Of a stretch of DNA of 64,000 nucleotides, positions 33,682-42,145 are shown piece after piece. Position numbers and translations under genes: made by a program. Under the pieces are notes generated by a model, which saw only the letters and a list, made by a program, of their open reading frames with translations, did not search any database and had not been told where the DNA came from. Source of the DNA: Patescibacteria group bacterium (lineage in GTDB: Bacteria; Patescibacteriota; Patescibacteriia; UBA2196); the NCBI GenBank assembly GCA_036845805.1, contig DAIUDD010000001.1, forward strand, positions 628-64,627. Reading direction: 5' to 3'. The first letter of the stretch is position 1. Every line of letters starts with the position of its first letter.

Positions 33682-34137
33682 ATGTATCTTTATCTTAACA
33701 CCACCGACCATAATTTTATTCATCTGGCCCTAATTAAACCCACTGGCCAGATTTTAGTGACCAAAAAAATTTCTGCGCCCTATCAGCAGTCAGAAAAATT
33801 ATTACTTAATATTCAAAAAATTTTAACCAGCGCCAAATTTCCCTTAACAAAAATCGCGGGCATAATTGTAATCAAAGGACCCGGTGGCTTTACTTCCTTG
33901 CGCATTGGTCTTGGTGTGGCCAACGCCTTGGCCTGGTCCTTACAAATTCCGATTGTGGGCGTGGAGTCAAAGTGTCAGAGTGTCAAAGTGTCAAAGTGTC
34001 AGGGTTTGTCCGCCAAATTGATGGACGAAGATAAACTTATTAGACAAGGACTACTTAAATTAAAAAAAACAAAATATTTCAAACCAATTATGCCAAAATA
34101 TGGCAGTGAACCGCATATTACTATCAAAAATAAATAA
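33682..34137 (+). CDS. tsaB: tRNA threonylcarbamoyladenosine biosynthesis protein TsaB, with in-frame tandem heptamer repeat
   Basis: IKGPGGFTSLRIGLGVANALAWSLQIPIVGV. Then (agtgtca)x5 at 33966-34004 encodes SKCQSVKVSKCQ. Confidence 0.75.
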   Translation: MYLYLNTTDHNFIHLALIKPTGQILVTKKISAPYQQSEKLLLNIQKILTSAKFPLTKIAGIIVIKGPGGFTSLRIGLGVANALAWSLQIPIVGVESKCQSVKVSKCQGLSAKLMDEDKLIRQGLLKLKKTKYFKPIMPKYGSEPHITIKNK

Positions 34138-34249
34138 TTATAGAAATTATTTTCAGATTAACTTGAATTTAATTTTTGTCCGTATTTCTTGTCAGGTTTT
34201 ATTGTTTTTCACTTGACCATTTGTATTGTTTTGCTAAAATAAAAAATAT

Positions 34250-34595
34250 TTATTGAGTAGGCTGGGGACAAAAACATTCCTCTGATGAAGCTTTCAGGGC
34301 CAATTAGTGCCAAAACCGGAGGGAGGAATGTTCCCCAGCACTATTTAATATCACAGGTGTAGCTCAATGTCAGAGCCGTTGACTGGTAGTAGCCAATTGG
34401 TTAGTGGTTCGAATCAACTTGCCCACTCAAAACCGCCATCTAAACAGGATGGCATACCGGGTGTGGCCCACTCTTAACTTAGGTCCGGGGTCGCCGAGAT
34501 ATAATGCAACAAATAACCCCTTTTTACGAGTGAGAGTGTGGCCACACCATTTTTTCAGCCCGATCTCAACACCGAGACGGGCTTTTTATTTTTTA
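34250..34595 (+). ncRNA. Candidate ~345-nt GC-rich structured RNA upstream of secD; class unresolved
   Basis: Promoter ttgacc-16-taaaat at 34213-34240. Long hairpin gctggggac...cattcctc / gagggaggaatgttccccagc. A T-arm-like ggttcgaatc but no complete cloverleaf. Terminator cccgatctcaacaccgagacggg plus T-tract near 34590. Confidence 0.35.
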
Positions 34596-34650
34596 ATTTC
34601 TCTAATATTTTATTCCTTTAGTCCTCTATTTTTTTCTTCTCTGTGTTTTT

Positions 34651-34705
34651 ATTCTTAAATCACCTGCCCGCTATCGCTACGCTCAAGCGTTGCTGGCGGG
34701 TAAAT
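34651..34705 (+). repeat. Conserved GC-rich box, copy 1; identical copy at 38856-38910
   Basis: cttaaatcacctgcccgctatcgctacgctcaagcgttgctggcgggtaaat is identical in both copies, each about 75-100 bp upstream of a start codon (secD and ORF 38963). Confidence 0.75.
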
Positions 34706-34778
34706 CTTAAATCTTTTCTCTCTTTTGTCTTACTATTTGACACATTTTTGCCTTTATTCTAAAATATAAGTAATCTTT

Positions 34779-36464
34779 ATGAATTTATCTCAAGCAACTA
34801 AAACTCGCTATAAATTAGCAGCTATTTTTGTCTTAGCTGTTTTTTGCGCACTGGTTGTTTATCCAAAAGTTCCGGCTGGGACGCCGTTGGAGAGTTTTTG
34901 GAATAAGACTAAATTTAAGCTCGGCCTAGATTTACAAGGTGGCGCTCATTTAGTTTTTCAAGCCGATACTTCACAAATTGATGCTCGGGATCAAGCTTCG
35001 GCTGTGGCTGGCACACGCGATGTCATTGAAAAACGCGTTAATGCTTTTGGTGTATCCGAACCAGTGGTGCAAACTAATCAAGTTGGCGACAGCTATCGCG
35101 TTATTGTGGAGTTGGCTGGTGTTAAAGATGTTAAAGAAGCTATTAAATCCATTGGCGAAATGCCCCTTTTGGAATTTAAGGAATTAAATCCAGAACAAAA
35201 AACAACCTTAACCCCAGAAGAAACTAAACAATTGGAAGAATATAATAACAATGCCAAAAAGAAAGCGGAAGAAATTTTAGCCCAAACCCTAAAACCAGGT
35301 GCTGATTTTAATCAGCTTGCCATTCAATACTCCGAAGACGAAGGTTCCAAAAACAGCGGTGGTGATTTGGGTTTTGCTAAACCCGGCATGTTTGTCACCG
35401 AATTTAATGATGTTATTTTTAATAAACAAAAAAACCCTGGCATTTATCCGCAAATTGTGCAAACCCAGTTTGGTTATCATATTATTAAAAAAATCGCCAC
35501 GCGCGGGGAAGGGGAGAATCTGGAAGTTAATGCCGCGCACATTTTAATTAAAACCAAATCTGAAACCGATTATCAACAATTAGATCAATGGTTAAATACT
35601 AAGCTTTCCGGCCGTCATCTAAAACGCTCCGAAGTGCAATTTGATCAAAACTCTGGCGAACCGCAAGTTGGTTTGGAATTTAATGATGAAGGCAAGGATC
35701 TGTTTGCTGACATTACCACCAGAAATGTGGGTAAACCTGTCGCCATTTTTTTAGACGGCGAAGCCATTTCTGTGCCCAATGTTAATGAACCAATTAAAGA
35801 GGGGCGAGCTGTTATTTCTGGTCGTTTTAATATTAAAGAAGCTAAACAACTGGTTGAACGTCTCAACGCCGGCGCCTTGCCTGTGCCAATTACTTTAATT
35901 TCCCAAGAAACCGTGGGCGCTTCTTTGGGTCAAGAATCTCTCGATAAAAGTTTGTTTGCTGGTTTGATTGGCATTTTAGCCGTGGCTCTTTTTATGATTA
36001 TTTTTTATCGCTTACCTGGTTTAATGGCCGTCATCGCCTTGGCTGTTTATGCTTTGATTAACTTGGCAATTTTTCAATTATTTTCCATTACTCTAACTTT
36101 GGCTGGTATTGCTGGTTTTGTTTTATCGGTCGGCATGGCTGTTGACGCCAATGTCTTAATTTTTGAGCGCTTAAAAGAAGAACTCCGCCATGGCCGCGAA
36201 TTAACCTCGGCTATTGATGAGGGTTTTAAACGCGCTTGGACTTCTATTCGTGATTCTAATATTTCTTCTTTAATTACCTGTGTCATTTTATATTGGATTG
36301 GCTCTTCCATGGTCAAGGGTTTTGCTTTGACCTTATTTATTGGTATTGTTGTTTCTTTGTTTTCAGCCATTACCGTTACCAGAATTTTATTAAAAATTTT
36401 GGTCGGTAAAAGTTTAAAAGAAAAAAAATGGCTCTTTGGCATCCATCAACATAATACTGCCTAA
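34779..36464 (+). CDS. secD: Protein translocase subunit SecD with an inserted parvulin-type PPIase-like domain
   Basis: C-terminal SecD TM bundle (GASLGQESL...LTLAGIAGFVLSVGMAVDANVLIFERL). The periplasmic segment DFNQLAIQYSEDEGSKNSGGDLGFAKPGMFVTEFNDVIFN...QFGYHIIKK resembles a PpiC/PrsA rotamase domain. Confidence 0.8.
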   Translation: MNLSQATKTRYKLAAIFVLAVFCALVVYPKVPAGTPLESFWNKTKFKLGLDLQGGAHLVFQADTSQIDARDQASAVAGTRDVIEKRVNAFGVSEPVVQTNQVGDSYRVIVELAGVKDVKEAIKSIGEMPLLEFKELNPEQKTTLTPEETKQLEEYNNNAKKKAEEILAQTLKPGADFNQLAIQYSEDEGSKNSGGDLGFAKPGMFVTEFNDVIFNKQKNPGIYPQIVQTQFGYHIIKKIATRGEGENLEVNAAHILIKTKSETDYQQLDQWLNTKLSGRHLKRSEVQFDQNSGEPQVGLEFNDEGKDLFADITTRNVGKPVAIFLDGEAISVPNVNEPIKEGRAVISGRFNIKEAKQLVERLNAGALPVPITLISQETVGASLGQESLDKSLFAGLIGILAVALFMIIFYRLPGLMAVIALAVYALINLAIFQLFSITLTLAGIAGFVLSVGMAVDANVLIFERLKEELRHGRELTSAIDEGFKRAWTSIRDSNISSLITCVILYWIGSSMVKGFALTLFIGIVVSLFSAITVTRILLKILVGKSLKEKKWLFGIHQHNTA

Positions 36465-36472
36465 GTTAATAT

Positions 36473-37399
36473 ATGCATTTAGCTATCGTTAAAAATCGCA
36501 ATAAATTCTTTATCTTCTCTGGGGTTTTAGTAATCCTCAGTATTATTAGTATTGCTGTTTGGGGTTTGAATTTTGGCATTGATTTTACCGGCGGTTCTCT
36601 TTTGGAAATTAAAATTAATAATGCCGAATTAATGAGTGCTTCTGATTTTTCCAACAAAATTACTACTCTCATGCCAACCTTGGGTGAAGTCCGCGTTCAA
36701 CCCTCTTCCGATGGCGGATATCTTATTCGTTTAAAACATCTGAGTGAAGAAGAACATCAGCAATTATTAAGAATGGCAACCGAAATTTTTAATGATCAAA
36801 ACAAAGACGTGCAAATTGAAGAAAAAAGGTTTGAATCTATCGGTCCGGTTATCGGTCAAGAATTAAAGGTTAAAGCTGTTTGGGCCATAATTTTGGCCAT
36901 GATCATGATTATTCTCTATATTGCCTATTCTTTCCGTCACGTTAGTAAACCAGTGGCTTCTTGGAAATATGGCGTCGGTGCTGTTATTGCTTTATTTCAT
37001 GATATTATTATTGTTACCGGTATTTTTGCTGCCCTCGGGCATTTTTTTGGCTATGAGATTGATTTATTATTTGTTTCCGCCCTTTTAACCATTTTAGGTT
37101 TTTCTGTTCATGATACCATTGTCGTTTATGATCGCACGCGGGAAAATTTAATTCATAATCCACAAAAAACTTTTGAGGATACCGTTGATAAAGCCACTAA
37201 TGATACCATCACTCGTTCCATTAACACTTCCTTAACCGTGTTTTTTGTTTTACTGGCCATGTATTTATTAGGTGGTGATTCTACTCGTAATTTTGTACTC
37301 GCTCTTTTAATTGGCGTCTTTTTCGGCACTTATTCTTCAATTTTTGTTGCCTCAACCCTGCTTGTTGTCTGGCATAAACTTGGCCTTAAGAAAAAATAA
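36473..37399 (+). CDS. secF: Protein translocase subunit SecF
   Basis: INFGIDFTGG and six TM helices, located immediately after secD. Confidence 0.9.
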   Translation: MHLAIVKNRNKFFIFSGVLVILSIISIAVWGLNFGIDFTGGSLLEIKINNAELMSASDFSNKITTLMPTLGEVRVQPSSDGGYLIRLKHLSEEEHQQLLRMATEIFNDQNKDVQIEEKRFESIGPVIGQELKVKAVWAIILAMIMIILYIAYSFRHVSKPVASWKYGVGAVIALFHDIIIVTGIFAALGHFFGYEIDLLFVSALLTILGFSVHDTIVVYDRTRENLIHNPQKTFEDTVDKATNDTITRSINTSLTVFFVLLAMYLLGGDSTRNFVLALLIGVFFGTYSSIFVASTLLVVWHKLGLKKK

Positions 37400-37436
37400 T
37401 TTCGGTCATCATCTGTCTCTATTTTTAAGGCGGCAC

Positions 37437-37472
37437 GTCGACGTGCCGCCTTCCTTTATTTATTAATTTTTT
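37437..37472 (+). terminator. Intrinsic terminator after secF
   Basis: Perfect palindrome aaggcggcacgtcgacgtgccgcctt followed by a T-rich run. Confidence 0.6.
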
Positions 37473-37617
37473 GTCTTTTCCTTGTCACTCACCTTAATTT
37501 CTCTCGCCCGCCAAGTGGCTGAAGGCGAAACCAGTGGCGAGCAGGCAATTTCTTTATTTCTCAATTTATTTTTTATTCATTTGACATTTTTTTCTAATTA
37601 TTGTATGATGATTATAT

Positions 37618-38754
37618 ATGACAGATCAAATACTCGATAATTTAATAAATTTTAGCCAAAATCAGGCAAAAAATCAGTTTTCTGCTCCAGAAATAGTTGA
37701 TTCTATTTTGGCCTTAATTAGTGACCGTGAGGCCAGTATTTTGCGTCAGCGCTATGGTTTAAATAATCAAAAAACACGTACTCTCGAAGCAATTGGTCAA
37801 AGTTTAAATTTAACTCGGGAGCGGGTTCGCCAAATAGAAAATCAGGCTGTCAAAAATATCTTAAAAAATAAGCGCTACGAAGAAATAGTCGCCCCTTTTC
37901 AGCGTTTAATTTTTTCTCTGGTTGCCGAACACGGCGGCTTAATGTCCGAAGATTGTTTAATTTCTAAATTAAAAGAAATGTCTATTGGCCAGCCAGACGT
38001 AGTGCCCTTTCTTAAATTTTTGTTAGCCAACTTTGTTACCGGTTTAGAACGTTTAGAGCAAGGTAATTTTAAGCCTGGTTGGCGTTCTTTAGATTTAACT
38101 TTGGAATGGGTGCAAAATATCCTTAATACTTTTGAAAAAATTTTAAACGAAAAAAATCAAATTATGGCGCACAGTGAATTAATGGATGCTTTTAAACAAA
38201 GTGAATTTTATCAAAGTGAACAAAATCACTGGCAAGAATTATTAGCAGCTAATAATCGTAATTTAGAGCAAGTAATCAATTCCTACCTTCTAGCTAGTCC
38301 CAAGTTTGCTCAAACCCCCTTTAATCAGTGGGGCCTGACCAGCTGGGGCAGTGCTTCTCCCCGTCGGATTAATGGTAAAATTTATTTATTGATGCTCCAT
38401 AAAAAACAACCGATGCATTTTACCGAAATTGCTGATTTGATTAATAAACACTGGAGTGATGAACGCCAAGTTAAAACCGCCACCGTGCACAATGAATTAA
38501 TTTTTGATCCGCGTTTTGTTTTAATTGGCCGTGGTCTTTATGGCTTGAAAGATTGGGGTTATCAAGAAGGTAATGTAGCGGATATTGTAATTGAAGTCTT
38601 AAAAAATAGCACGACCCCATTAAGTGAAGCTGAAATAATTAAGCAAGTAAAAGATAAAAAACAGGTTAAGGAAGCCACTATTAGATTAGTTTTAAAGAAT
38701 AAAGATAAATTTGAAAAATCCGCAGATAATACTTATCATTTAAAAGCCAGTTAA
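37618..38754 (+). CDS. DNA-binding protein: sigma-70 region-4-like HTH plus two C-terminal HARE-HTH-like winged helices
   Basis: ILRQRYGLNNQKTRTLEAIGQSLNLTRERVRQIENQAVKNI is sigma region 4. C-terminal MHFTEIADLINKH...GRGLYGLKDWGY and IVIEVLKNSTTPLSEAEII...YHLK are HARE-HTH-like. Confidence 0.45.
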   Translation: MTDQILDNLINFSQNQAKNQFSAPEIVDSILALISDREASILRQRYGLNNQKTRTLEAIGQSLNLTRERVRQIENQAVKNILKNKRYEEIVAPFQRLIFSLVAEHGGLMSEDCLISKLKEMSIGQPDVVPFLKFLLANFVTGLERLEQGNFKPGWRSLDLTLEWVQNILNTFEKILNEKNQIMAHSELMDAFKQSEFYQSEQNHWQELLAANNRNLEQVINSYLLASPKFAQTPFNQWGLTSWGSASPRRINGKIYLLMLHKKQPMHFTEIADLINKHWSDERQVKTATVHNELIFDPRFVLIGRGLYGLKDWGYQEGNVADIVIEVLKNSTTPLSEAEIIKQVKDKKQVKEATIRLVLKNKDKFEKSADNTYHLKAS

Positions 38755-38962: not shown

Positions 38963-40402
38963 ATGGAAATACTCCTAAATTATTTATCCAATTGGGGACT
39001 GAAAAGCGATAATCCTTGGGATGTTTTTGCTTTTATTTTTACCCACGGTGGTTTTATTTTGGTTTTTTGGGTTTTAATTACTGGGTTTATGCTTGTTTGG
39101 TTAGAATGGCGCCAGGGAAAATTTTCTAGTCAGTTAAAATGGGTTTATCTGGCCATTGATGTCCCGCGCAATAACGAACAATCTCCCAAGGCAGTGGAGC
39201 AAATTTTTAATCAACTTTGGGGTATTATTAAAGGCCCAACTTTTGTCGAAAAATGGCTTGATGGTTATGGCCAGGTTAATTATAGTCTAGAATTAGTTTC
39301 CATTGATGGTTACGTGCAATTTGTTATCAGGTGTCTAGCTGGTGTCAGAGATGTGGTCGAGGCTGCTATTTATGCCCAATACCCTGAAGCACAGATTACT
39401 GAAATTGAAGATTATGCGAAAAATTTTACACCAGATAATTTTAAAGAATTGGGTTATGATTTATGGGGCGCGCAAATTGGCATTATTAAAGACGAAATGT
39501 ATCCCATTCGCACTTACCCTGTTTTTGAACACGCCATTACTAAAACCAAAGAATCAATTGGTATTATCGATCCCCTGGCCGCGCTTTTAGAAATTTTTAG
39601 CCGTTTTAATAAAGGTGAACAAGGTTGGTTGCAAATTACCATTCGACCAGTCGATGATTCTTGGAAAGAAAAGTGTTTAAAAGAAGTTCAAAAAATAATT
39701 GGTGCTCCTACTAAACCGCCAGCGCCGGGTTTGGTTGATCAGTTGCTAGACATGCCGGTTTCTGCGGTTAGTAAATTTGCTGATCAAATGTTTATTCCCG
39801 CTTCTGTTAAAAGTGACGAAAAAAAACAAGACGTACCTTCCAAAATGTTATATTTATCACCGGGTGAAAGACAGACAGTTGAAGCCATTGATAATAAAGC
39901 CACCAAAACCGGTTTCAAAGCGAAAATTCGTTATATTTATCTCTATAAAAAAGAGGTTGGTAATAAATCAAAGGGTGTTTCGGGAGTAATGGGGGCGCTT
40001 AAACAATTCAGTGCTCTAAATTCTAATGGATTTAAACCGCTTGGACCAACCGTCACCAATTCTAATCTTATTTTTAAATCTTTGCGTGAAAAAAAGAAGC
40101 TTGAATTACAGAGAAAAATTTTAAAATCTTATAAATCGAGAAGTTCGGGTTCCGGCATTAGCGAGAAAGGTTATTTTATTTTAAACACGGAAGAACTAGC
40201 TACTCTTTATCACTTTCCCTATAAGGGCGTGGCTGGCACTTCGGTCAAGGCTGTTAGCGCTAAGCGAGCCGAAGCGCCTTATACTTTGCCTTATGACGAG
40301 GAAAAAGAAGAGACAAAATCGAATAGCGCTCCCACGGTTAATAAAGCAGACAATCTGGGCGTAGCTGATAAGTTGTCAGCACCAGATAATTTACCCATGT
40401 AA
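38963..40402 (+). CDS. Membrane-anchored hypothetical protein (479 aa)
   Basis: N-terminal TM hairpin then a large soluble domain with no recognisable motif; located 9 bp upstream of a TraG/VirD4-like ATPase gene. Confidence 0.35.
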   Translation: MEILLNYLSNWGLKSDNPWDVFAFIFTHGGFILVFWVLITGFMLVWLEWRQGKFSSQLKWVYLAIDVPRNNEQSPKAVEQIFNQLWGIIKGPTFVEKWLDGYGQVNYSLELVSIDGYVQFVIRCLAGVRDVVEAAIYAQYPEAQITEIEDYAKNFTPDNFKELGYDLWGAQIGIIKDEMYPIRTYPVFEHAITKTKESIGIIDPLAALLEIFSRFNKGEQGWLQITIRPVDDSWKEKCLKEVQKIIGAPTKPPAPGLVDQLLDMPVSAVSKFADQMFIPASVKSDEKKQDVPSKMLYLSPGERQTVEAIDNKATKTGFKAKIRYIYLYKKEVGNKSKGVSGVMGALKQFSALNSNGFKPLGPTVTNSNLIFKSLREKKKLELQRKILKSYKSRSSGSGISEKGYFILNTEELATLYHFPYKGVAGTSVKAVSAKRAEAPYTLPYDEEKEETKSNSAPTVNKADNLGVADKLSAPDNLPM

Positions 40403-40411
40403 TTTTATTTT

Positions 40412-42145
40412 ATGGTTAATAATAATGAAGAAATTACTTATTTTGCGCGGACTAATTACCGCAATCAGAATAAAAAATTCGGCATCAAATTAGATGATCG
40501 CCGTCGGCATATGTATGTGTTGGGAAAAACCGGTGTGGGTAAAACCACTTTATTGAAAAACATGATTATTCAAGATATTGATAATGGCCATGGTTTGGCC
40601 TATATTGATCCACATGGTGATGATGTCCAAGAAGTTTTAGAGTGTATTCCCGCTCATCGCACTAATGATGTTATCTATTTTAATCCGGCCGATTTGTCTT
40701 ATCCGATTGCATTTAATATTTTGGAAAACATCAATCCCGATTATAAGCATTTGGTCTCTGATGGTTTGATGGGTGTTTTTACTAAAATTTGGGCCAACAT
40801 GTGGTCAGCCAGAATGGAGTATATTTTACGTAATTGTATTTTGGCGCTTTTAGATTCACCCGGCAATACTCTGCTTGGTATTATGCGTCTTTTAGTCGAT
40901 AAAGAATTTCGTCGAAAAATTGTCGAAAAAATTCAAGACCCAGTGGTCAAAACTTTTTGGGTAGAAGAATACGCCAATTATAATGAACGTTTCCGTACCG
41001 AGGCGATTGCGCCTATTCAAAATAAAGTTGGACAGTTTTTATCTTCAGCGGTAATAAGAAACATTGTCGGTCAGCCCAAATCCACTATTGATATCCGTGA
41101 TTTTATGGATAACGACAAAGTTCTTTTAATGAATTTATCTAAAGGAAAAATTGGTGAAGATAATTCCAATTTGCTTGGCGCCATGATGATTACTAAAATT
41201 CAATTAGCGGCCATGAGTCGAGTTGATATTACCGAGGCCGAACGGAGTGATTTTTTCCTCTATGTTGATGAAATGCAAAATTTTGTCACCGAATCTTTTG
41301 CCGATATTTTATCTGAAGCCAGAAAATATCATTTGGGTTTAATTTTATCTCATCAATATATTGCTCAACTATCAACTCCCGAAAGCACCAAGGTTCGTGA
41401 TGCTGTTTTTGGCAACGTGGGCACCATTGTTTGTTTTCGTGTTGGTGCTGATGATGCTAAATTTTTAATTAAAGAATTTGAACCATATTTAACCGAAGAA
41501 GATTTGGTTAATATTAATAATCGGGAAATTTATTTAAAATTAATGATCGACGGTGTTAATTCCCGTCCTTTTTCTGCCTCCACTTTGGCGCCATTTTCCA
41601 TTGGCCGGCGGAGCGATAAGACCGCCGAAAAAGTGATCAAGGTTTCTCGCGAGCGTTATGCTAATCCCAGAGAAGAAGTCGAAGAGAAAATTATGCGCTG
41701 GCTTAATTTAGATGAAACCTTTAAAGCTCAAGCGGCTGAAGGCAAGCTCGCTGGTGACGAAGCCATTTTTCGTGCCAAAACCTCGAGTGAAAAAAAATCG
41801 ACCGAAATCGTTAAATCCAACAAAAAAAATGTCGAGCTTAAAGCCGTTTGTGATAATTGCGGGGCTGGCACTGTCCTATCTTTTATTCCGAAACCAAATT
41901 TAAATATTTTTTGTAAAGATTGTTTGAAAAAATTTAAGGATGGAAAAATTGATGTGGCTAAACTAACTTTTCATAATAGTGAATTATTTGCTAATTTAAA
42001 TCAAAACAAGCCCGCTCCTACAGAAACGCCGCCTGTTATTACCCAAGTTAAAGAAGTTTCTCTTACTGATTTAAACCGTCTGGCTGTTGAAGAAAAATCG
42101 GCTCAACCCCAAGACTTAAATCCAGGCCAGCGAGTAAAATTATAA
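40412..42145 (+). CDS. P-loop NTPase related to TraG/VirD4/TraD coupling proteins (AAA_10/DUF87 clan) with C-terminal zinc ribbon
   Basis: Walker A VLGKTGVGKTTLL followed by YIDPHGD, Walker B FFLYVDEMQNF, and a C-terminal CDNCG...CKDC. Confidence 0.45.
   Translation: MVNNNEEITYFARTNYRNQNKKFGIKLDDRRRHMYVLGKTGVGKTTLLKNMIIQDIDNGHGLAYIDPHGDDVQEVLECIPAHRTNDVIYFNPADLSYPIAFNILENINPDYKHLVSDGLMGVFTKIWANMWSARMEYILRNCILALLDSPGNTLLGIMRLLVDKEFRRKIVEKIQDPVVKTFWVEEYANYNERFRTEAIAPIQNKVGQFLSSAVIRNIVGQPKSTIDIRDFMDNDKVLLMNLSKGKIGEDNSNLLGAMMITKIQLAAMSRVDITEAERSDFFLYVDEMQNFVTESFADILSEARKYHLGLILSHQYIAQLSTPESTKVRDAVFGNVGTIVCFRVGADDAKFLIKEFEPYLTEEDLVNINNREIYLKLMIDGVNSRPFSASTLAPFSIGRRSDKTAEKVIKVSRERYANPREEVEEKIMRWLNLDETFKAQAAEGKLAGDEAIFRAKTSSEKKSTEIVKSNKKNVELKAVCDNCGAGTVLSFIPKPNLNIFCKDCLKKFKDGKIDVAKLTFHNSELFANLNQNKPAPTETPPVITQVKEVSLTDLNRLAVEEKSAQPQDLNPGQRVKL

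Follow-up and report, generated by a model that had tools for sequence, protein, structure and literature searches.

In the model built on the structures from Thermus thermophilus and Deinococcus radiodurans, SecDF uses the proton motive force to move the head of its extracytoplasmic P1 domain, by which the emerging chain is bound and pulled from SecYEG. PrsA, by comparison, is a lipoprotein foldase of Gram-positive bacteria. The start of folding of secreted proteins as they leave SecYEG, and the effect of the P1 head on them, are matters of debate. Parvulin chaperones act non-covalently at the Sec translocon or on SecDF, the precedents being PpiD/YfgM with SecYEG, SurA with Sec, and a PrsA-like dome on SecDF in Mycoplasma (PMC9643414; PMC9987972; bioRxiv 10.1101/2024.09.05.611430; 10.1101/2025.04.25.650208). 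The dome of Mycoplasma pneumoniae (Mpn444/Mdp444, Mpn436, and Mpn489) is found on the Sec translocon/SecDF, where Mpn444 cross-links to SecD. Both PpiD/YfgM and the dome appear to aid emerging chains as separate proteins (PMC9643414; bioRxiv 10.1101/2024.09.05.611430; 10.1101/2025.04.25.650208). This article describes a SecD that carries a predicted parvulin, a peptidyl-prolyl isomerase (PPIase) domain, within its own polypeptide. Its gene lies in a 64,000-nucleotide stretch of DNA from a Patescibacteria group bacterium (assembly GCA_036845805.1, contig DAIUDD010000001.1, positions 628 to 64,627), referred to below as the window.

The secD open reading frame encodes a protein with the complete SecD plan, comprising an N-terminal transmembrane (TM) helix, a P1 domain with base and head, and a C-terminal bundle of five TM helices. 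It scores 399.4 bits against TIGR01129, the NCBIfam SecD equivalog-domain model (cut-off 244.4), and its Pfam matches follow one another in the order Sec_GG (residues 45–65), SecD_1st (79–137), Rotamase, SecDF_P1_head (273–369, at 103 bits), and SecD_SecF_C (371–540). The last strand of the base, PLLEFKEL, was matched by alignment to AVLEFRIV of 3aqp, and in a fold comparison of the predicted structure the P1 base and head around the insert resemble 3aqo. D340 of T. thermophilus SecDF is a conserved TM aspartate on the proton path; its counterpart here by phmmer alignment, D456, is invariant in 72 homologues of 56–74% identity, the set to which the statements on residue conservation below refer. 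Between base and head, the insert matches Rotamase_3 (PF13616) over residues 153–238 with 86.9 bits and an E value of 1.9e-24 (gathering cut-off 22.5) and Rotamase (PF00639) over residues 151–238 with 71.9 bits (gathering cut-off 21.7), and its predicted structure has the three-dimensional fold of a parvulin by fold comparison. Since hidden Markov models (HMMs), predicted structure, and fold comparison agree, a parvulin/PpiC-type domain covalently inserted into the extracytoplasmic P1 domain of a genuine SecD is confirmed at the level of sequence profiles and structure prediction. A sequence-only reading of the window had recognized SecD in the same plus-strand frame of 561 residues and a parvulin-like PPIase domain in its periplasmic region; it had proposed HMM searches with PF00639 and PF13616 and a structure prediction, and these returned, respectively, rotamase matches above threshold and a parvulin-type fold inserted in P1, so that the outcome it had named as refuting, a segment without any rotamase match, did not arise. 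Its placement of the domain between the first TM helix and the TM bundle was right (residues 138–272), although the exact insertion point had escaped it.

The residues expected of a parvulin active site are found in the insert. The parvulin body contains S185, D187 (within YSED), a GGDLG motif, L197, F205, F209, T229, and H234, the last of these on strand β4 (FGYH234IIKK), and a further histidine, H254, lies on the strand that we assign to β1 (EVNAAH254ILIKTK). We take H254, D187, T229, and H234, from motif alignment, to be the equivalents of Pin1 H59, C113/Asp, T152, and H157. No variation occurs among the homologues at N156, F177, D187, G195, G232, H234, H254, or I255, and very little at L256; position 229 is only ever threonine or serine, and L197, F205, and F209, which would form the hydrophobic proline pocket, are conserved. 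Judged by sequence, the active-site set is therefore present, in an altered order along the chain. The two histidines are 20 residues apart in 61 of the 72 homologues, with a maximum of 53. The loop between them, which joins β4 to the following strand (β1′), has six residues in most one-module proteins and up to about 33 extra residues in a few. The best sequence match in the PDB is SurA (1e-20), and no second parvulin is encoded within the window.

The canonical parvulin order is β1-α1-α2-α3-β2-α4-β3-β4, with β1 as the central strand of the sheet, and the insert departs from this order. The rotamase profiles match it only from position 10 of 97 (PF00639) or 30 of 116 (PF13616), so the N-terminal β1 “HIL” strand is missing upstream, and the 72-sequence alignment contains no conserved strand or histidine between the final base strand and α1. 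The segment EVNAAHILIK, downstream of β4, aligns to β1 of the second SurA parvulin domain, a strand that comes right after β4 of the first. AlphaFold2 (AF2) gives the order α (146–170), α (177–184), α (188–191), β (196–200), α (207–216), β (221/227–229), β (232–242), and β (249–258), which is the same in the full-length protein and the isolated insert, and the strand at 249–258 has a predicted local distance difference test (pLDDT) score of about 97 in both. Because the predicted β4-β1′ hairpin forces the last strand onto the side of β4 that is free of β3, we infer from the known sheet order of parvulins that it would occupy the slot of the canonical β1. In an in-silico un-permutation, residues 245–262 were placed before α1 and the sequence was rescored with both profiles; PF13616 then gave 97.3 bits, versus 92.3 in the natural order and 88.7 with the strand deleted, and the coverage of PF00639 reached profile position 1. 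The module is thus apparently a circular permutant, which starts at α1, runs to β4, and after a short loop ends with the central strand β1.

The insert is a property of a family and not of a single protein. Rotamase and SecD domains occur together in all of the 120 best clusters at 90% identity (56–74% identical to the window protein), every one of which is annotated as “SecD” only and whose named members belong to Kuenen-, Komeili-, Buchanan-, Falkow-, and Kerfeldbacteria, with one “Bipolaricaulota” label. A comparison with the SecD of relatives had also been proposed in the sequence-only reading, which had overlooked the apparently permuted strand order and the conserved, modular character of the insert; a host among the Patescibacteria, or candidate phyla radiation (CPR), fits its remark on minimal cells. 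The sole name seen outside the Patescibacteria is that of a 666-residue insert-bearing SecD, “Candidatus Bipolaricaulota bacterium” (P0068), which could represent a mis-binned contig or a true occurrence outside the CPR. A scan of a genome collection with the single insert returned only free parvulins (Idiomarina, Bacilli, and Campylobacterales), the back-translated patterns being too specific.

An exhaustive search over 1.84 billion representatives at 50% identity gave 4762 SecD-like proteins at E ≤ 1e-30, and 65 of the best 150 of these matched a profile of the insert. The distance from base strand to head sorts into discrete classes: about 61 representatives had the 0–50 residues of an ordinary SecD, about 17 had 125–150 residues, corresponding to one module (135 in the window protein), about 31 had 225–265 (two modules), about 11 had 325–400 (three modules), and a single representative had 473. 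The insertion junction, from P1 base to P1 head, is identical across all spacing classes. Two-module SecDs occur in Patescibacteria including Uhrbacteria, on contigs of up to 1.5 Mb, and forms of SecDF length (1000–1100 residues) are those of Peregrinibacteria and Gracilibacteria; the parvulin insert therefore spans deep lineages of the Patescibacteria.

The multi-module relatives bear on the origin of the permutation. In two-module proteins the insert runs α1a…β4a, “xSHILI”, α1b…β4b with “GYHxI”, and a trailing strand. A histidine is never found on β4a (143 of 143 proteins), is almost always found on the strand that follows it, always on β4b, and almost never on the trailing strand, and the same pattern recurs in an independent set from Peregrinibacteria and Gracilibacteria. 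Module b aligns as a full canonical parvulin, from β1 onward, with Pin1 (54–162) and SurA P2, whereas the window module aligns from α1 onward only. Each two-module protein thus has one complete histidine pair in canonical order, while the pair of one-module proteins, of which 115 of 137 have an intact D/H/H pattern, is in permuted order. In two-module relatives, a degenerate module thus adjoins a set of catalytic residues in canonical order. A rough neighbor-joining tree built on the SecD parts common to both kinds places one-module proteins among two-module ones, and the representative closest to the window protein on it has two modules; the linker and α1 of the window protein are closest to module a and its core is closest to module b. 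Such a composition is what the loss of a repeat unit by deletion, or a duplication in the opposite direction, would be expected to leave, and by this token the family looks like a living case of “permutation by duplication”, the classical route. As to the arrangement of the two-module insert, a canonical domain nested within the β4/β1′ hairpin of a degenerate permuted one is favored over tandem permuted units, because the histidines of β4a and the trailing strand have been lost jointly and because the β4-β1′ loop, which is the site of the second module under the nested arrangement, tolerates insertions (20 to 53 residues from histidine to histidine). Seven SecDFs of Peregrinibacteria and Gracilibacteria type (P0439, P0448, P0460, P0467, P0468, P0470, and P0474; 1011–1013 residues) have the length of insert-bearing forms with no Rotamase match detectable by Pfam; their modules may have degenerated past recognition and yet have been retained.

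The protein of the window is probably the SecD subunit of a SecDF motor with a permuted parvulin that serves as a PrsA-like foldase or holdase at the SecYEG exit. Beyond the observed domain identities, insertion site, residue conservation, and distribution, we infer that the insert is catalytic and acts on translocating substrates, and a foldase function at the translocon exit is plausible by analogy. With an intact His/Asp/Thr/His set and proline pocket, and with its tether at the head hinge, the insert would be placed to act on the emerging chain. The P1 head would capture an unfolded chain emerging from SecYEG and pull it, and the tethered parvulin, at the hinge of that head, would bind the same chain and speed its prolyl isomerization and early folding. 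Forward movement and release would in this way be favored, and back-sliding disfavored.

Other explanations differ in how much of this account they would remove. An assembly or gene-calling artefact, that is, a chimeric contig or a secD/prsA read-through, would remove the fusion itself, and the metagenomic source of the assembly lends the idea some color; but the insert is in frame within P1 with SecD on both flanks, the base and head around it fold like 3aqo, the identical protein occurs on 13 Joint Genome Institute (JGI) metagenome contigs, and the same architecture recurs in hundreds of homologues at 50–74% identity, taken from many different sources and samples. The artefact was rejected on the grounds of the 13 contigs and of the 120 best homologues, and its probability is negligible. 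An account that keeps the fusion and dispenses with the permutation would have an ordinary parvulin without β1, with the HILIK strand outside the fold, as a vestige without function that remained when a second domain was lost. The alignment of this strand with β1 of the second, not the first, SurA parvulin domain would suit such an origin, as would the second module of close relatives and the dependence of the β4-β1′ pairing on a model prediction. Yet β1 is central to the sheet and has no upstream source before α1, the invariance of H254 and I255 and the near-invariance of L256 would be unexpected of a vestige, a strand of 10 residues is predicted there with high pLDDT in both models, and moving it upstream restores full-length profile coverage, which together make a vestige very unlikely.

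Several observations weigh against a permuted and catalytically active foldase. The gain on un-permutation is modest (5–9 bits), the pairing of the strands and the proximity of H234 to H254 are AF2 predictions alone, with secondary-structure (DSSP) ranges that leave the register open, and the full-length model, at a predicted template modeling (pTM) score of 0.51, does not fix how the parvulin is oriented toward the P1 head and the SecY exit. The trailing strand of two-module relatives usually lacks the histidine and is thus not always catalytic. Several well-folded parvulin domains at the translocon, such as those of E. coli PpiD and the P1 domain of SurA, are catalytically inactive or dispensable, for which reason conserved residues are no proof of catalysis. 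The main rival is accordingly a non-catalytic role, in which the insert, like these, would be a substrate-binding or chaperone module, or a structural prop that tunes the movement of the P1 head, with His and Asp kept for fold stability. In its favor, module a of the two-module relatives is kept in all 143 cases without its β4 histidine, a sign that degenerate modules are useful at this site, the seven Rotamase-negative SecDFs keep their length, and a mainly structural role has been argued for the two histidines of Pin1. It is opposed by the full D/H/H set of the window protein and most one-module relatives, which is accompanied by S185, T/S229, L197, F205, and F209, and by the retention of exactly one complete histidine pair in two-module proteins; this retention suggests, at the level of sequence, that selection maintains a single competent active site in each protein. 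We therefore regard the non-catalytic role as improbable, although it deserves far more weight than either the vestige or the artefact, and prefer the foldase or holdase at the SecYEG exit. A broader view, which we hold tentatively and with slightly less than even confidence, is that CPR SecD/SecDF forms a covalent “translocation-folding machine” whose one-, two-, and three-module forms, all with the insert at one junction, are stages of a permutation by duplication and deletion. Two-module forms would then combine a canonical active parvulin with a partner that has degenerated and a spare β1 at the end, and the window form would be a collapsed one, the first natural permuted and catalytically equipped parvulin, on a moving P1 head.

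Table 1. Coordinates in the window of secD, its predicted domains and insert elements, and the adjoining features.
Feature	Position	Strand	Details
Sigma-70-like promoter match	34737..34765	+	TTGACA, 17 nt, TAAAAT; 11/12; 14 bp before secD ATG; consensus match only
secD open reading frame with inserted parvulin module	34779..36464	+	561 amino acids
N-terminal TM helix, residues ~5–27	34791..34859	+	AF2 helix 5–27; aligns with N-terminal helix of T. thermophilus SecDF
P1 base, N-terminal half	34911..35189	+	Sec_GG motif 45–65, SecD_1st 79–137; final strand PLLEFKEL
Inserted parvulin module, residues 138–272	35190..35594	+	
Parvulin body α1-α2-α3-β2-α4-β3-β4, residues 146–242	35214..35504	+	Secondary structure, column conservation; D187 at 35337–35339, H234 at 35478–35480
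Loop GEGENL, linking β4 to the apparently displaced β1	35505..35522	+	Length variable among homologues
Apparently displaced β1 strand EVNAAHILIK, residues 249–258	35523..35552	+	SurA P2 alignment, conservation, AF2; H254 at 35538–35540
P1 head subdomain, residues 273–369	35595..35885	+	
SecD TM bundle, SecD_SecF_C, residues 371–540	35889..36398	+	Contains D456 (36144–36146)
secF open reading frame	36473..37399	+	308 amino acids; TIGR00966 282 bits; PF02355 196 bits
Intrinsic-terminator-like hairpin	37427..37452	+	11 pairs, 8 G-C; T-rich tail; 28 bp past secF stop

The secF gene starts 8 bp past the secD stop codon, so the gene of the SecF partner is adjacent (Table 1). Upstream of secD lies a 640-bp stretch without genes (34138–34778), which is also empty in the JGI gene calls and in which no Rfam family scored above threshold and ARAGORN found no tRNA; its only signals are a tRNA-like Rfam match below threshold (34356–34423, plus strand; 23 bits, gathering score 29) and another promoter-like site (34213–34240). 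The gene before this gap (33682–34137) encodes a 151-residue TsaD/TsaB-family protein that covers only profile positions 30–89 of 264 and is short for a TsaB-like protein. Directly after the secF terminator, a promoter-like site (37581–37609; 11/12) precedes the gene for a 378-residue protein composed of Sigma70 region 4 and a HARE-HTH domain (37618–38754). Further downstream are genes for a 479-residue protein of no confident Pfam family (38963–40402; weak DUF8128) and, 3′ of it, a 577-residue TrwB/VirD4-like coupling-protein ATPase with a treble-clef zinc finger (40412–42145), which may be a pair of the type IV secretion or DNA-uptake kind.

No paper on a SecD-parvulin fusion or on a circularly permuted parvulin was found among 8 million full texts, a collection outside which most subscription journals lie. 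Both parts of the fusion are well known, and automated Pfam annotation already shows them together in public proteins. Since domain fusions are common and parvulins are known to associate with Sec, the finding is in this respect not shocking; it is, however, lineage-wide, mechanistically suggestive, and tractable, and involves an unusual rearrangement of a fold. A lineage-wide fusion at the base-head hinge is evidence of an independent, evolutionary kind that the same emerging chain is acted on both by the SecDF head and by a prolyl isomerase or chaperone, and the protein provides a compact, single-polypeptide system for testing the coupling of SecDF and parvulin. It adds a concrete trait of envelope biogenesis for the Patescibacteria/CPR, the cell biology of which is largely unknown, and the apparent permutation, alongside relatives that have one, two, or three modules at one site, makes a natural case for the origin of permuted domains. 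The names “SecD” and “SecF” alone, as currently used in annotation, hide the extra function.

In comparison with known systems, the ordinary SecD/SecDF proteins (T. thermophilus 3AQP/3AQO and E. coli SecD/SecF) have 4–50 residues at the base-to-head junction, where the window protein has a 135-residue parvulin. PrsA proteins (Bacillus subtilis; B. anthracis, 6VJ6; Listeria monocytogenes PrsA1, 6XD8) differ from the window SecD, which has neither a lipobox nor an N/C-terminal SurA-like chaperone (NC) domain; the flanks of the insert are the P1 base and head of SecD, which itself serves as the anchor, and the strand order appears permuted. The scores against the PrsA models, 67.3 bits for NF002846 (cut-off 361) and 47–54 bits for the others, place it outside that family, and the insert may thus be called PrsA-like in function by analogy, without being a family member. 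The same holds for SurA (E. coli, 1M5Y), where NF008038 gave 47 bits (cut-off 394) and no Pfam match to a SurA_N or PpiD chaperone domain was found in the window SecD. The likeness to SurA lies in the β4-loop-β1 segment of the insert (xRGExxN..EVxAxHILxK), which aligns with the SurA P1-P2 junction, and in the combination of one degenerate with one active domain, mirrored in the two-module SecD relatives. SurA is, however, a soluble protein with canonical domains and an N-terminal chaperone domain, whereas the insert runs from α1 to the next β1 inside SecD. A soluble SurA-like protein of 427 residues, the periplasmic PPIase of Bacteroides fragilis (8HM3/8HM4), matches the insert over 117 residues, about 26 more than single parvulin domains do. 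In functional terms the nearest counterparts would be E. coli PpiD/YfgM and the Mycoplasma dome, which by analogy share the idea of a membrane-tethered parvulin chaperone at the translocon exit; these are separate polypeptides with large chaperone domains, whereas the window SecD has a bare module covalently built into P1.
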